A DNA stretch of 64,000 nt, from sequence record PZ296772.1, one strand, 5' to 3'. The notes under the pieces are model-generated. The model was not told where the DNA came from. It ran no database searches and saw only the letters and a program-made list of their open reading frames with translations. The stretch comes from a phage. Positions 31,518 to 62,576 of the stretch are shown in pieces; position 1 is the stretch's first letter, and each line of letters starts with the position of its first letter. The position numbers were made by a program, and so were the translations under genes.

Positions 31518-31880
31518 ATGAAAGCATATCAAATTCTTGAAGGTGCACATAAAGGCACTATTTATTTTGAAGACGGCACTCAAGCCCGGATTATTGTCTC
31601 TAAGACTTTTAAAGAAGACGCTATTGTAGACCCGGAAATTTTCTACGGTTTGATTGCCCGTGAAATTGAAATTGAACATCAACCTAAAGTTAAAATTGAA
31701 GGTGGTCAACACCTGAACGTTAATGTTCTGCGTCGTGAAACTCTGGAAGATGCAGTTAAGCATCCAGAAAAATATCCGCAGTTGACCATCCGTGTATCCG
31801 GTTATGCAGTTCGCTTTAACTCTCTGACTCCGGAACAGCAGCGCGACGTTATCGCTCGTACCTTTACTGAGAGTCTATAA
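31518..31880 (+). CDS. grcA: Autonomous glycyl radical cofactor (GrcA/YfiD-like)
   Basis: 120-aa ORF whose C-terminal 60 aa carry the glycyl-radical motif [25 protein letters not shown], near-identical to the enterobacterial GrcA/PFL C-terminus. Confidence 0.9.
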
Positions 31881-32579: not shown

Positions 32580-32630
32580 GTTTACTTCTCCTCTAGTTGT
32601 GTTACTATAGACATGTCAACTAGAGGAGAA
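32580..32630 (+). promoter_or_regulatory. Early promoter cassette with 14-bp perfect inverted repeat
   Basis: -35 GTTTAC 32580-32585, -10 TACTAT 32603-32608, TTCTCCTCTAGTTG (32586-32599) / CAACTAGAGGAGAA (32617-32630); right arm contains the RBS. Confidence 0.65.
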
Positions 32631-32636
32631 ATCAAA

Positions 32637-33095
32637 ATGACTATCAATTCAGACGTTTTTATCCGCCGTAATAAACTCCGTCGAATCTTTGAAACGGAGT
32701 TCCGCAAAATAAATGCCGGTATAAAAGATGCTGCAAAGTCTCTTGGGCTACCCGGCTTTCATATCAAGTATTCTCAACATCTCTTAGATCGTGCCATCCA
32801 GAGAGAAATAGATGAGAATTACGTTTTTGAATTATTTCGTAAAGTAAAAAATCATGTTAAAGAAGTTGCAGAATTTTTATCAATGCCGGCACGTCCAGAT
32901 GTTGATGAAGATTTTGTCGAAGGTGTCGAATATCGCCCGGGCCGTTTAGAAATAACTGATGGAAATCTTTGGTTAGGACTTACAGTTTGTCGCGAAAATC
33001 CAGCGTTCAAAATGAAGACTCTTCAATGCAGAATGGCTATTATTAACAGTAAACGACTACCAGGAAAAGCTTCTAAAGCAGTGATTAAAATCTAG
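32637..33095 (+). CDS. Hypothetical protein
   Basis: 152-aa product from MTINSDVFIRRNK. Confidence 0.5.
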   Translation: MTINSDVFIRRNKLRRIFETEFRKINAGIKDAAKSLGLPGFHIKYSQHLLDRAIQREIDENYVFELFRKVKNHVKEVAEFLSMPARPDVDEDFVEGVEYRPGRLEITDGNLWLGLTVCRENPAFKMKTLQCRMAIINSKRLPGKASKAVIKI

Positions 33096-33103
33096 AGGTA
33101 AAC

Positions 33104-33646
33104 ATGAGAAAAGCACTACTCGCTGGTCTATTTGCTCTTTCATTATCAGCACATAGCTCCGAGCATACTTTTAGTAATGTCCAACTCGATAACTTGAATT
33201 ATGCTTATCAGTTTGGGGAGCAGTTTTCTAAGGATGGAAAATTTAAAACGCATGAAAATATGCATAAGAAAGGACTTGGATACATAATGGCCGCAATACT
33301 ATGGCAGGAATCATCTGCTGGTATTAATCTTAAAGATAAGAAAGGTCACCATGCGTATGGAATGTTCCAAAACTATCTACCAACAATGAGGGCAAGAATT
33401 AACCAGCTTGGTTATAATATGACTGATGCCCAAATTAAGAAAATGCTATCTAAGCGGTCTAATTCAACCAGATGGGCTTATATCGAATTTTCTTATTGGT
33501 TAAATATACATAACGGGGATATAAGAAAAGCTATATCCTCATACAATGCGGGATGGAAGACAAGTGCTGGAAGTAAATATGCTTCTGAAGTCCTAGAAAA
33601 GGCTAATTACCTTAAATCAAATAAACTACTGGAAATAAAAGAATGA
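33104..33646 (+). CDS. Secreted lytic transglycosylase-like protein (SLT domain)
   Basis: 180-aa ORF with N-terminal signal peptide (MRKALLAGLFALSLSAHS), catalytic-type WQESS and SYNAG motifs. Confidence 0.6.
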   Translation: MRKALLAGLFALSLSAHSSEHTFSNVQLDNLNYAYQFGEQFSKDGKFKTHENMHKKGLGYIMAAILWQESSAGINLKDKKGHHAYGMFQNYLPTMRARINQLGYNMTDAQIKKMLSKRSNSTRWAYIEFSYWLNIHNGDIRKAISSYNAGWKTSAGSKYASEVLEKANYLKSNKLLEIKE

Positions 33647-33990
33647 CCAAAATGTTGGCTTTAATAGTTGGCTTGGTTTCATTTAACGCTCTTGCTAATA
33701 CTACATATACTGATGTAACGGAGTATACAAACAGAACGGCGTCTGATTATTGTGGTAAAAGTCAAGAGTGTAAAGTAGATTTTTCACAAAAATTGTTATA
33801 TGCGTATAAAGACGGAGAAAAAGATGGGGCGTCTAGTAGGTTCAAGGCGTCTACCTTAATTAAACGATATCATAAAAAATGGCAAATATTAGAATGCTCG
33901 GTGGCGGAACCTAAAGATAAGGCAGCATGCAATTCTATGGTAGACCGCCTAGTTGACTCTTATACTAGAGGACTTGCAGCAAGTGATTAA
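33643..33990 (+). CDS. Secreted/periplasmic small protein
   Basis: 115-aa ORF with signal peptide MTKMLALIVGLVSFNALA and 4 Cys. Confidence 0.5.
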   Translation: MTKMLALIVGLVSFNALANTTYTDVTEYTNRTASDYCGKSQECKVDFSQKLLYAYKDGEKDGASSRFKASTLIKRYHKKWQILECSVAEPKDKAACNSMVDRLVDSYTRGLAASD

Positions 33991-34450
33991 AAACTATATC
34001 AAGGGCGATATTGTCGCCCTGTTTTCTAAAGGTAATAATATTGCTCATGGGTGTAATTGTTTTCATACAATGGGCGCCGGTGTAGCAGGACAATTAGCAA
34101 AGGCTTATCCAAAAATTCTGGAAGCCGATAAACTTCAAACTGTATATGGAGATGAGTCTAAACTCGGGACTTATTCAGTTTATGAAAAATATTTTAAGAC
34201 CCATAAAGCTTATTGCTTTAATCTTTATACACAGTTTGAGCCGGGACCTAATTTTGAGTGCTCTGCTTTAATGAATTGTATAATAGAATTAAATGAATTC
34301 GGAAAGAATAAGATAACAAAGCCTGTAATTTATATGCCAAGAATTGGTGCAGGTATCGGTGGTGGAAACTGGGATGTCATCGAAGAGATTTTAGATACAT
34401 ATTCCACTAAACTAGAAATTGTGATTGTTGATTGGGAACCATTGTTATGA
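33983..34450 (+). CDS. Macro-domain-like protein (ADP-ribose binding/hydrolase fold); start uncertain, no in-frame ATG
   Basis: Motifs NNIAHGCNCFHTMGAGVAGQL and PRIGAGIGGGNW resemble macro-domain signatures; first in-frame starts are TTG 33953 or GTG 33983 (GAGGA 11 nt upstream of GTG). Confidence 0.5.
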   Translation: MIKNYIKGDIVALFSKGNNIAHGCNCFHTMGAGVAGQLAKAYPKILEADKLQTVYGDESKLGTYSVYEKYFKTHKAYCFNLYTQFEPGPNFECSALMNCIIELNEFGKNKITKPVIYMPRIGAGIGGGNWDVIEEILDTYSTKLEIVIVDWEPLL

Positions 34451-34659
34451 ATATACACTATCCACATCCATATGACCCAAAGAATAAGACAGTAATTATT
34501 CGTCAATGGGAACGCATTTGTCGTACTAAATGTCCAATTAATAGTCCACATGATGTAGATAAAGACTACATCGGAACATTCGTTGAATATACCTTTATTG
34601 ATAAGAAAGGCCGTAAACAACATGTAGAAGAATATTGCTTAAAGGTGACATGGCTATGA
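34447..34659 (+). CDS. Hypothetical protein
   Basis: 70-aa product from MNIHYPHPYDPK. Confidence 0.45.
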   Translation: MNIHYPHPYDPKNKTVIIRQWERICRTKCPINSPHDVDKDYIGTFVEYTFIDKKGRKQHVEEYCLKVTWL

Positions 34660-34862
34660 GTCAAACAAAAATTCTTACAGGTGCTAAATGCGAAAAATGC
34701 GAATGGCCTGTAGTTTTTGCTTTATGCAATGACGAAATGGCTTGTGATTTTGATTATTGGTGTTACTGTTCGAACAAAGGTTGTAGCAATCATAAAGGTG
34801 AAGGGTTTTACTCAGGATTTTACCCTTACCCGGATTTCGTTAAAGAAGGTGAACCTAAATGA
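34656..34862 (+). CDS. Cys-rich small protein (possible zinc ribbon)
   Basis: 68-aa product with CEKCEW...CNDEMACD...CYCSNKGC. Confidence 0.45.
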   Translation: MSQTKILTGAKCEKCEWPVVFALCNDEMACDFDYWCYCSNKGCSNHKGEGFYSGFYPYPDFVKEGEPK

Positions 34863-35041
34863 AATTGACTAAAGAAGAGAAAACTAAACTGTTCGAACTT
34901 ATCCATGACCTATTGGATGAACAAGCAGCCACCAGTGCGTATGATGAATACGCTCCTTTGACAGACGAAGAATATCAAGCATTGATGGAATCATTTGACA
35001 GGAAAGAACAAGAACTCATTGACTATGTGAATTCACTATAA
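34859..35041 (+). CDS. Hypothetical acidic protein
   Basis: 60-aa ORF. Confidence 0.4.
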   Translation: MKLTKEEKTKLFELIHDLLDEQAATSAYDEYAPLTDEEYQALMESFDRKEQELIDYVNSL

Positions 35042-35050
35042 GGGACTCTT

Positions 35051-35632
35051 ATGGCTAGTTTAATTTTTACATATGCAGCAATGAACGCAGGTAAGTCTGC
35101 TTCATTACTTACTGCCGCACATAACTATAAAGAACGTGGCATGGGTGTATTAGTTCTTAAACCGGCTATTGATACTCGTGATTCAAAAGGTGAAATAGTC
35201 TCTCGCATTGGTATTCGTCAGGATGCCAATATAATTACAAAAGACATGGATATCTTTGAATTTTATAAATGGGCTGCAGCACAAAAGGATATTCACTGTG
35301 TATTTGTTGACGAAGCTCAGTTCTTAACTACTGAAAAGGTGTATCAACTTAGTCGTATTGTTGACGTATACAATGTGCCGGTAATGGCATATGGACTACG
35401 AACAGATTTTAAAGGTAATCTATTTGAAGGTTCTCAAGCATTAATGGCTATCGCCGATAAGCTTGTTGAACTTAAAGGTGTCTGTCATTGCGGTAAAAAG
35501 GCCACAATGGTAGCTAGAGTCGCGGAAGACGGACTTCCAATTACAGATGGCAGTCAAATTGAAATTGGTGATACTGATAGATATGTGTCATTATGCCGGA
35601 AGCATTGGAATGATTTGACAGGGTTGTTATAA
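35051..35632 (+). CDS. tk: Thymidine kinase
   Basis: 193-aa ORF with P-loop AAMNAGKSASLLT and C-terminal Zn-binding CHCGKKA...C motif; T4 tk is 193 aa. Confidence 0.93.
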   Translation: MASLIFTYAAMNAGKSASLLTAAHNYKERGMGVLVLKPAIDTRDSKGEIVSRIGIRQDANIITKDMDIFEFYKWAAAQKDIHCVFVDEAQFLTTEKVYQLSRIVDVYNVPVMAYGLRTDFKGNLFEGSQALMAIADKLVELKGVCHCGKKATMVARVAEDGLPITDGSQIEIGDTDRYVSLCRKHWNDLTGLL

Positions 35633-35659
35633 ATACTAATATCTAACCAAGAGGTATAT

Positions 35660-35872
35660 ATGCAGCAATTAAACGAAAGACAACTTCGTAATCTTACTGT
35701 AACCCAATTGGATGAAATCCGAAGAGAATTAGGACATTCTATTTCTCATTTAAACGAGGATATCCGTCAAACTGGTTCTAAAGCTGATTATACACGCAAG
35801 CGCAAGCTGGAAAAATACCTCGCAGATGTTAAGGCCGTCCAAAGGCGAAAAATAAATACTGGCCAAAATTAA
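35660..35872 (+). CDS. Hypothetical protein
   Basis: 70-aa basic ORF. Confidence 0.45.
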
Positions 35873-60677: not shown

Positions 60678-61640
60678 ATGATTACTATCAATTCCAAAGA
60701 ACACATTCTAGAACAGAAATATCGTCCTTCTTCCATTGACGAATGTATTCTGCCTGCGTATGACCATGAAACATTCAAGTCTTTAGTATCTAAAGGAAAA
60801 CTTCCTCATATTATTTTGCACTCTCCTTCTCCTGGTACAGGTAAAACAACTGTAGCAAAAGCATTATGTAATGATATCAATGCCGAAATGATGTTCGTCA
60901 ACGGTTCTGATTGTAAGATTGATTTTGTGCGTGGCCCGTTAACTGCATTCGCTCGTTCAGTCTCAATGGAAGGCAAGCCTAAAGTTATTGTTATTGATGA
61001 ATTCGACCGTAGTGGTCTCGCCGAATCACAACGTCACCTTCGTACGTTTATGGAAGAATTCTCTAGTAACTGCTCTATTGTTATTACTGCTAACAACATC
61101 GATGGAATTATTGAACCATTACGTAGTCGTTGTCGAGTTATCGAATTCGGACGTCCAACCGAAGAAGATAAAATCTCGATGATGAAGAAAATGATTCATC
61201 GTATGGTTGAAATCTGTAAGAATGAAAATATCGAAATCGCTGATATGAAAGTTGTTGCAGCTCTGGTTAAAAAGAACTTCCCGGACTTTCGTCGTACAAT
61301 TGGTCAATTAGACCAGTACTCGTCTAAAGGTGTTCTTGATGCAGGTATTCTGTCTATCGTAACTAATGACCGTGGCACAGTCTCTGACGTTATCGAAGCA
61401 ATGAAGAATAAAGATATCAAACAGCTTCGTGCATTAGCTCCAAAATATGCTGCAGATTATTCATGGTTCATCGATAAATTAGTTTCAGAATGTTATGACC
61501 AAGTTGCACCTGGTAAAAGTATTATTTCGCTTTACGAAATTGCAGGCGAAAATAATAAGTTTCATGGACTAGCAAGTAATATTGAATTACATGTTATGTA
61601 TATGCTTCTTCAACTGACCTGCGAACTGACTTGGAAATAA
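60678..61640 (+). CDS. 44: Clamp loader large subunit gp44
   Basis: 320-aa ORF with Walker [11 protein letters not shown], Walker [12 protein letters not shown] motif. Confidence 0.95.
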
Positions 61641-61641
61641 T

Positions 61642-62205
61642 ATGAACTTATTTGATGATGACGTCCAGCTTAACGAGCACCAAATTGCATGGAAGTCTAA
61701 TGACGCTGATGCGATCCAAAAATGTGCTGATATGTTTAAAGAAAAACCTGAGAATGAATTCTTTAAAATCATTAATGCTATTAATGAAAAGAAACCTATG
61801 TCAATTGCTCAGGTCGACTACTCAAAATTTATGGTTGAGAACTCATTATCCCAGTTCCCAGAATGTATGCCAGCTGTTTACATGATGAACTTAGTCGGTT
61901 CTGAATTAAGTGATGAAGCGCACTTCAACTATATGATGGCGGCAATTCCGCGTGGTCGACGATTCTCTAAATGGGCTAAACTAGTAGAAGACACTTCAGA
62001 GTTACTAGTTATCAAACTGTTGATGAAACATTACACAATCAACATGAATGATGCTACCGAGTATAAGCGGCTCCTTGAAAAAAATAACAAGTTGCCAATA
62101 GTCCTTAAAGAACTGAAGGCCATGGTCACTGATGAATTTCTCAAAGAAGTTACCAAAAACGTGAAAGAACAAAAACAATTTAAAAAATTAGCATTGGAAT
62201 GGTAA
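61642..62205 (+). CDS. 62: Clamp loader small subunit gp62
   Basis: 187-aa ORF following gene 44 with 1-nt gap; same length as T4 gp62. Confidence 0.9.
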
Positions 62206-62207
62206 AA

Positions 62208-62576
62208 ATGATTGAAATTAAATTGAAGAACCCCGAAGATTTTCTGAAAGTCAAAGAGACTTTGACCCGTATGGGCATCGCTAATAACAAGGATAAAGTT
62301 CTTTATCAGTCCTGTCATATCCTCCAAAAGCAAGGTAAGTACTATATCGTCCACTTTAAAGAAATGTTGCGTATGGATGGACGTCAGGTTGATATCGACG
62401 GTGAAGACTATCAGCGACGTGATTCGATTGCCCAGTTGCTTGAAGACTGGGGATTGATTATTATTGAAGACTCTGCTCGTGAAGATCTATTTAGTCTGAC
62501 TAATAACTTCCGAGTTATCTCTTTTAAACAGAAAGATGACTGGACTTTGAAAGCAAAATATACAATTGGTAATTAA
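62208..62576 (+). CDS. regA: Translational repressor RegA
   Basis: 122-aa product MIEIKLKNPEDFLKVKETLTRMGIANNKDKVLYQSCHIL... Confidence 0.93.
   Translation: MIEIKLKNPEDFLKVKETLTRMGIANNKDKVLYQSCHILQKQGKYYIVHFKEMLRMDGRQVDIDGEDYQRRDSIAQLLEDWGLIIIEDSAREDLFSLTNNFRVISFKQKDDWTLKAKYTIGN

Follow-up and report, generated by a model that had tools for sequence, protein, structure and literature searches.

Gene content and identity of the locus

The window analysed here is a 64,000-nucleotide (nt) stretch of phage DNA (sequence record PZ296772.1), and the subject of this report is a block of three overlapping genes at positions 33104-34450 of its plus strand. The first, vs.1 (33104-33646), encodes a 180-residue protein that is predicted to be exported and that resembles the GH23/family-1 lytic transglycosylases in its motifs and modelled fold. 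The second, vs (33643-33990), encodes a 115-residue protein annotated as "valyl-tRNA synthetase modifier". The third, tk.4 (also named adfM; 33983-34450), has a GTG start codon and encodes a stand-alone macro domain of 155 residues. An earlier note on this DNA had placed three open reading frames (ORFs) at these coordinates, and the ORFs, their motifs and their overlaps are confirmed. Judged by sequence and gene order, they are vs.1, vs and tk.4 of the T4 early region in RB69-type copies. These genes have long been catalogued and the finding is largely known: it rediscovers three T4 genes, and the idea of an anti-DarT macro domain has already been published for T4. What goes beyond the existing annotation is the export signature of Vs beside Vs.1 and a glutamine in place of lysine in the T4-type anti-DarTG2 macro domain.

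A 3.1-kb megablast query spanning positions 32600-35700 matched 674 phage records, at least 80% of the query being covered in 151 of them, with Escherichia phage vB-Eco-KMB38 as the top match (99.9% DNA identity). On this sequence evidence the source phage is T4-like and RB69-like (Tevenvirinae). Gene names were taken from the annotated relatives LR027383 and MK962757, which give the order regB, vs.1, vs, tk.4, tk.3, an RB32ORF111c-like ORF, tk.2 and tk. The upstream neighbour of vs.1, regB (site-specific endoribonuclease; 32637-33095, plus strand), anchors the synteny: it has the Pfam domain REGB_T4 (E-value: 1.1e-68), and the equivalent position of LR027383 is annotated regB. T4 (NC_000866) has the same gene order, with vs.1, vs and tk.4 at 61726-62271, 61386-61733 and 60922-61389, respectively; orientation and neighbours (regB upstream; tk.3 through tk downstream) also agree, and protein lengths are within one residue. 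Protein identity to T4 is 75.8% for RegB, 81.2% for Vs.1, 66.1% for Vs, 83.2% for Tk.4, 98.6% for Tk.3 and 81.3% for Tk, and the RB69 and window copies of Vs are 99.1% identical. The window differs from T4 in three details: its tk.4, which starts at a GTG, shares 8 nt with vs, whereas the start of T4 tk.4 is the ATG of an ATGA overlap; vs.1 and vs share 4 nt rather than 8 nt; and Vs ends in AASD rather than STR.

Vs.1, a predicted exported lytic transglycosylase-like protein

Vs.1 carries the motifs W67-Q-E69-S-S71 and S146-Y-N-A-G150, with the putative catalytic Glu69 encoded at 33308-33310 (plus strand). In an alignment of 34 diverse homologs, down to 40% identity, residues E69, S71, G86, Q89, N90, Y147, N148 and G150 are invariant. 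The conserved motifs (S70/S71, G86-M-F-Q89 and S146-Y-N-A-G150) supply the catalytic Glu-Ser, the GLMQ-like motif and the AYNAG-like motif. The N-terminus, MRKALLAGLFALSLSAHS followed by SE, combines two basic residues with a hydrophobic core (highest 10-residue Kyte-Doolittle value, 2.42) and an A-x-S site, and residues 1-18 (33104-33157, plus strand) are predicted to form a signal peptide. Signal peptides were called throughout by a simple heuristic rather than SignalP; its controls behaved as expected, with regB, tk.4, tk.3 and tk negative and rI positive. The same pattern (basic N-terminus, hydrophobic core and A-x-A type site at approximately residue 18-21) is kept in almost all of the 34 homologs.

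Because sequence and profile searches of the PDB gave nothing beyond chance, the fold of Vs.1 was taken from a structural model. The model shows a goose-lysozyme-like, all-helical catalytic fold. Fold comparison values were 12.3 for MltF, 12.0 for Pseudomonas aeruginosa Slt, 11.7 for a GH23 chitinase, 11.2 for Slt70, 11.1 for g-type lysozyme, 11.0 for MltC, 10.1 for EtgA and 9.9 for MltE, and Foldseek returned the same families with weak E-values. An hhalign comparison of the Vs.1 family with the single MltE sequence sets E69 on the catalytic E64; this match is weak (E-value: 0.083) and informs the residue register only. Relative to Slt70, MltC, MltE and MltF (Pfam SLT, GH23) and goose-type lysozyme, the modelled Vs.1 is a single domain of approximately 160 residues with an extra N-terminal helix. 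It is also a phage product whose gene lies among the early genes, and it is not the endolysin or a virion protein.

Several results weigh against an enzymatic assignment. The Pfam soluble lytic transglycosylase (SLT) profile PF01464 scores 19.4 bits on Vs.1 (E-value: 7.8e-4), below its gathering cut-off of 21.3, so that the similarity of this copy to the family-1 enzymes lies under the Pfam threshold. A profile of the Vs.1 family found no SLT in the PDB and gave chance-level matches only (metacaspase, E-value 0.065; goose lysozyme, E-value 0.54), and a search of the literature found no published biochemical activity for Vs.1. A single-sequence search of the PDB with Vs.1 gave no match, and PHROG 600, to which Vs.1 belongs, is labelled "unknown function". 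Precomputed PF01464 matches are present in about 25 among 120 Vs.1 homologs listed, and Nolan et al. (2006) reported a Pfam SLT match in all six T4-like genomes of their study, with E-values of 0.012-0.74, and cited earlier PSI-BLAST matches. The marginal similarity and the lack of a reported activity would suit a catalytically dead protein that merely binds peptidoglycan. However, homologs down to 40% identity keep the Glu with the Ser/Thr-Ser after it, G-x-F/Y-Q-N and Y-N-x-G with little or no variation, a pattern that selection on an active site would produce, and we consider a dead Vs.1 unlikely. We conclude from the model and the predicted signal peptide that Vs.1 has a GH23 fold and is exported; its active site looks intact, and its activity and role are deduced from these features. 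The suggestion in the earlier note of an exported SLT-like enzyme is thus supported by the model and by the signal-peptide pattern. Its description of such a gene as unusual does not hold, since Vs.1 is found by tblastn in 2061 phage records and its SLT similarity was published in 2006.

Two annotation problems were seen in passing. In several public records (MK962757 61781-62323 and UniRef names) Vs.1 is labelled "endoribonuclease" or "site-specific RNA endonuclease", a name apparently transferred by mistake from the adjacent regB. In Shigella phage Ag3 (locus L006, 1801-2313) the tblastn match to Vs.1 begins 123 nt upstream of the annotated start of the coding sequence (1801 versus 1924), and the annotated Ackermannviridae protein is probably truncated at the N-terminus, without the catalytic-Glu region.

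Vs, annotated as a valyl-tRNA synthetase modifier

The 115-residue ORF is Vs, although the earlier note did not recognise it as the "valyl-tRNA synthetase modifier". It belongs to PHROG 1256 ("valyl tRNA synthetase modifier"; E-value: 1.8e-35), and its position between vs.1 and tk.4 matches that of T4 vs. The N-terminus is MTKMLALIVGLVSFNALA followed by NT, residues 1-18 are the predicted signal peptide, and there are four conserved cysteines (Cys 37, 43, 85 and 96). No matches to Vs were found in PDB, Pfam or NCBIfam. Standard searches recovered few relatives (four clusters in a word-indexed search and seven proteins in an exhaustive HMMER scan). These conserve the four cysteines and a C-terminal C-x-SMVDRLVDSY-x-RGL motif, and every full-length member, T4 Vs included, has a signal-peptide-like N-terminus.

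In an Acinetobacter phage, a very divergent Vs-like gene lies directly after vs.1. A hidden Markov model that includes this copy was scanned over 70 IMG/VR loci encoding Vs.1 and recovered distant homologs, a Vs homolog being present downstream of vs.1 in 64 of the 70. A hydrophobic N-terminus and exactly four cysteines in the mature part are shared by 54 of 56 distinct Vs proteins, which supports the proposal of the earlier note that a second exported four-cysteine protein is encoded here; four homologs (loci L037, L038, L039 and L062) have the lipobox LSGC. For 47 of the 56, the start codon is found at -8 to +3 nt relative to the end of vs.1. The Acinetobacter-phage loci keep the vs.1-vs pair without regB, tk.4 or tk nearby. 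An AlphaFold2 model of Vs (predicted local distance difference test score of 84.6) is a four-helix bundle in which C37 and C43 would lie at the turn between helices 1 and 2 and C85 and C96 at the turn between helices 3 and 4. Structural comparison of the model gave no informative relatives and no fold similarity to any inhibitor.

With its heuristically predicted signal peptide and its four conserved cysteines, Vs would lack the cytoplasmic location that binding to valyl-tRNA synthetase (ValRS) would call for. Its sequence features are hallmarks of an extracytoplasmic protein and a misfit with binding a cytoplasmic synthetase. On the other side, the vs product has classically been reported to bind the cytoplasmic ValRS, which conflicts with an exported Vs. 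The predicted mature form of T4 Vs is 11.0 kDa, which we take to be close to the reported size of the classical ValRS factor.

Vs may therefore not be, or not only be, a modifier of a cytoplasmic synthetase. It could instead work alongside Vs.1 in the periplasm, perhaps by inhibiting or regulating the exported transglycosylase. The earlier note had named a periplasmic partner or inhibitor as a candidate role; we put this possibility forward tentatively, regard it as the less probable one and see in it the most interesting remainder of the finding. It is favoured by the retention of the signal peptide, the four cysteines and, in four proteins, the lipobox across otherwise highly divergent homologs, by the near-constant distance between the vs.1 stop and the vs start, and by the isolated pair in the Acinetobacter phages. 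Members of the T4-type subgroup share an unchanged C-terminal helix, which would suit a binding surface. Two observations on T4 Vs point the same way: the recombinant protein, with an N-terminal His tag, is insoluble in E. coli, and a preprint reports that a T4 vs knockout plates poorly on minimal medium only (bioRxiv 10.1101/2025.11.20.689424), a defect that an unrestrained wall enzyme might also give. Against a partnership, adjacency is weak evidence because synteny is generally conserved in this phage family, and in one group vs.1 and vs are 0.5-1.2 kb apart. By tblastn, Vs.1 is found in 2061 phage records and Vs in 796 (an underestimate, as the search misses distant homologs), so that Vs.1 can exist without a recognisable Vs. 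Classical genetics and biochemistry, moreover, tie vs to ValRS. The T4 Spackle (gp61.3)-gp5 lysozyme pair and type VI muramidase-immunity pairs such as Tse3-Tsi3 offer an analogy only. No literature on the export of Vs.1 or Vs was found.

In its full form, this doubtful but possible reading places the vs product in the periplasm, as a four-helix protein stapled by disulfides and, in some phages, lipid-anchored, that works with or restrains Vs.1. The ValRS label would then be mis-assigned, arise from an artefact after lysis or describe a second function, and the minimal-medium defect would stem from envelope damage and not from translation. For fifty years vs has been annotated as the modifier of a cytoplasmic enzyme, yet its product has every sequence hallmark of export and its gene comes right after that of a predicted exported wall enzyme. 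If the periplasmic reading is true, the widely propagated annotation of Vs is wrong and T4 has an uncharacterised early periplasmic enzyme-partner pair.

A different gene occupies the place before tk.4 in some of the Aeromonas Biquartavirus phages, which have no Vs. An unrelated 146-residue lipoprotein is encoded directly upstream of tk.4 and overlaps its start in two of three loci examined (L065, 4356-4796; L074, 4531-4971) and in GenBank phage SW69-9 (L004).

Tk.4, a stand-alone macro domain

The GTG start codon of tk.4 at 33983 gives an 8-nt overlap with the end of vs and lies approximately 10 nt after the sequence AGAGGA. The ATG of T4 tk.4 sits at the homologous codon (MIVKYIKGD in T4 versus V/MIKNYIKGD), which fixes the start by homology, and the same start is annotated in public records. 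The earlier note had described a macro-domain ORF that overlaps the end of the preceding gene and needs a GTG or TTG start, and the homology with T4 settles on GTG. Its wording that the frame has no ATG was too broad, as in-frame ATG codons occur farther inside, one of them at Met30 (HTMGAG). Ahead of the conserved HGCNC motif there is none, and a non-ATG start is needed all the same.

The Pfam profile Macro (PF01661) scores 28.5 bits on Tk.4, above its cut-off of 22, and positions 2-117 of its 118 align with residues 22-136 of the protein. A profile built from 39 Tk.4 homologs matches 28 macro domains in the PDB at E-values of 0.01 or lower. Those matched include BT1257 (E-value: 7e-18), TARG1/OARD1 (9e-16), SCO6735 (4.5e-15), Mycobacterium tuberculosis DarG (2e-13), yeast Poa1p (4.5e-13) and Thermus aquaticus DarG (2.4e-11); the single Tk.4 sequence also matches Poa1p (E-value: 2e-8). 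With hhalign, T. aquaticus DarG (its sequence checked against the PDB beforehand) scored 98.2% (E-value: 5.5e-14) and TARG1 98.0%. These sequence and profile comparisons support the macro domain proposed in the earlier note. Tk.4 is the ortholog of T4 Tk.4/AdfM (83.2% identity, same length, encoded between vs and tk.3; PHROG 335, E-value: 2.6e-65), which RefSeq names "phosphatase" after the A1pp motif. No signal peptide is predicted. NCBIfam DarG (NF048014) scores 30 bits on Tk.4 against a cut-off of 250; the protein consists of the macro domain only, with no C-terminal DarT-binding domain, and so it is not a DarG.

Tk.4 shares with the DarG macrodomains (T. aquaticus 5M31/5M3E and M. tuberculosis 5M3I) the fold group, the ADP-ribose-site asparagine (N25, aligned with DarG N22) and the G-x-G and P-x-x-G-x-G loops. 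It differs from them at Q84, which is invariant in the 39 homologs and occupies the position of the catalytic lysine (DarG K80/TARG1 K84). The equivalent of D125 of human TARG1 is likewise replaced, by glycine (G126). In the profile alignment BT1257 also has glutamine where TARG1 has Lys84. The solved structures that match best by sequence are TARG1/OARD1, Bacteroides BT1257 (2FG1), Poa1p and Streptomyces SCO6735 (5E3B), with E-values of 7e-18 to 4.5e-13. To our knowledge, these four proteins act on protein-linked or free ADP-ribose derivatives and not on DNA.

Evidence on the function of this gene comes from T4. An earlier study found all Tevenvirinae tested to be resistant to DarTG2, for reasons then unknown. 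According to a preprint of November 2025, growth of a T4 transposon library on a DarTG2 host gave tk.4 as the sole significant hit, and cleanly knocking out this gene made T4 sensitive to DarTG2; the gene was renamed adfM (bioRxiv 10.1101/2025.11.20.689424). The proposal that the macro domain reverses DarT-type ADP-ribosylation had therefore already been described, on genetic grounds, for T4 tk.4. The window copy is like T4 AdfM in having N25 and Q84, in its 83% identity and in its synteny. A PhiKZ-type macro protein, also called AdfM, is reported to strip ADP-ribose from DarT2-modified DNA in vitro (Cell Rep 2026, PMC13309987); unlike Tk.4, it keeps the lysine (K78). PhiKZ-type and T4-type AdfM are two different macro lineages under one name, and the accessible text of the AdfM papers holds no discussion of the Gln-for-Lys substitution.

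Two points count against carrying a DarG-like anti-DarT2 role over to the window phage. With Gln84 for the catalytic lysine and glycine for TARG1 D125, a DarG-like catalytic mechanism of Tk.4 is not established. The anti-DarTG2 evidence, moreover, is confined to T4 and to a preprint, which in its accessible part demonstrates the function genetically and reports no enzymology for the T4-type protein. The main job of Tk.4 might be another one: it could dephosphorylate ADP-ribose-1''-phosphate as Poa1p does, deacetylate O-acetyl-ADP-ribose, or remove the ADP-ribose that the phage enzymes Alt, ModA and ModB place on protein or RNA. The absence of the DarG/TARG1 lysine, the RefSeq name and the presence of Poa1p and BT1257 among the closest solved relatives would agree with such a job. 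It is nevertheless improbable, given the outcome of the DarTG2 screen and the sensitivity of the knockout as reported in the preprint, and nothing shows a phage need for the small-molecule activities. An anti-DarT2 macro domain without the DarG/TARG1 lysine would have to hydrolyse ADP-ribosyl-thymidine by another route or else work differently, and Gln84 thus bears on how macro domains cleave base-linked ADP-ribose.

Arrangement of the three genes and proposed model

The TGA stop of vs.1 and the ATG start of vs overlap in an ATGA at 33643-33646, and these overlapping codons suggest that the two genes may be translationally coupled. A second ATGA, at 34447-34450, joins the tk.4 stop to the start of tk.3 (DUF7202; 34447-34659, plus strand; Pfam DUF7202 E-value: 7e-38). 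The overlapping stop-start arrangement continues through tk.3, a zinc-binding ORF (34656-34862, plus strand; Pfam Phage_zn_bind E-value: 3.7e-29) and tk.2 (34859-35041, plus strand; named from LR027383). Because it runs on in this way, the overlap is a property of the region and not of vs.1, vs and tk.4. The thymidine kinase gene tk (35051-35632, plus strand), identified from the LR027383 annotation and its identity to T4, follows.

The earlier note had treated the three genes as one coupled block and stated that it knew of no described T4-type module combining them; vs.1, vs and tk.4 are in fact adjacent genes of T4 itself. A single functional module, consisting of wall cleavage, its inhibitor and ADP-ribose removal, would draw on the overlapping stop and start codons that link the genes and on the vs.1-vs-tk.4 order of most T4-like loci. 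The overlaps, however, extend beyond tk.4 to tk.2, and the tblastn distributions differ about 3.5-fold (Tk.4 being found in 2814 phage records). The Acinetobacter phages and several other groups lack tk.4 in the vs.1-vs neighbourhood: in 14 of the 70 loci there is no tk.4 within approximately 3.5 kb downstream of vs.1, or one upstream only, and in a further 19 tk.4 starts approximately 400-650 nt past the vs match. Homologs of tk.4 also occur in rV5-like and Felix O1-like groups with no vs annotated under the match. Tk.4, finally, has no signal peptide, and the T4 genetics of the preprint place its action on DNA in the cytoplasm. We therefore give almost no credence to a three-gene module. What the sequence evidence supports is a possible vs.1-vs pair; it does not support tying this pair to the macro domain.

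The best overall explanation, to which we assign a probability of roughly 85%, is that the block consists of RB69-type copies of vs.1 (an exported GH23-fold protein), vs (an exported four-helix protein) and tk.4 (an anti-DarT2 macro domain) that form no joint machine. The steps of the model would be the following. A Sec signal peptide on the Vs.1 precursor presumably directs the protein into the periplasm during infection, where Vs.1 most likely binds and cleaves the glycan strands of peptidoglycan. Vs would likewise be exported, as a small four-helix protein whose four cysteines are placed to staple two helix hairpins. From its sequence features and its near-constant position after vs.1, it would act in the periplasm, probably together with Vs.1. 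Tk.4 would remain in the cytoplasm as a stand-alone macro domain of the TARG1/DarG/Poa1p/BT1257 group and most likely shields phage DNA from the DarT2 toxin by taking ADP-ribose off thymidines; given its invariant glutamine, it cannot use the catalytic lysine of DarG and TARG1. The three genes are packed head to tail, and their stop and start codons overlap in the way common to T4 early regions; they would not make up a three-part machine.

Predicted hairpin near the start of tk.4 and the upstream vs.6 gene

A promoter scan gave no enrichment (17 sites against 19.9 expected). A terminator-like RNA hairpin is predicted at 34002-34020 (plus strand), within codons 7-13 of tk.4. It has the form AGGGCGAU-AUU-GUCGCCCU, with an 8-bp stem and a 3-nt loop, and is followed by GUUUUCU; it folds with an energy of -13 kcal/mol (z = -2.99). 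T4 and many relatives retain the stem at the DNA level. Two loci (L036 and L040) have AAGGCGAC...GUCGCCUU, in which a synonymous G>A and a C>U change form a compensatory pair in the stem, and a third (L051) keeps the stem with a different loop. The hairpin could be an attenuator, a transcript-end element or a stability element between vs and tk.4.

Farther upstream, at 31518-31880 (plus strand), lies a homolog of vs.6, whose product is a stand-alone glycyl-radical protein that resembles GrcA/YfiD and carries the motif RVSGYAVRF. T4 vs.6 is annotated "autonomous glycyl radical cofactor GrcA", and its Pfam match was already reported in 2006.

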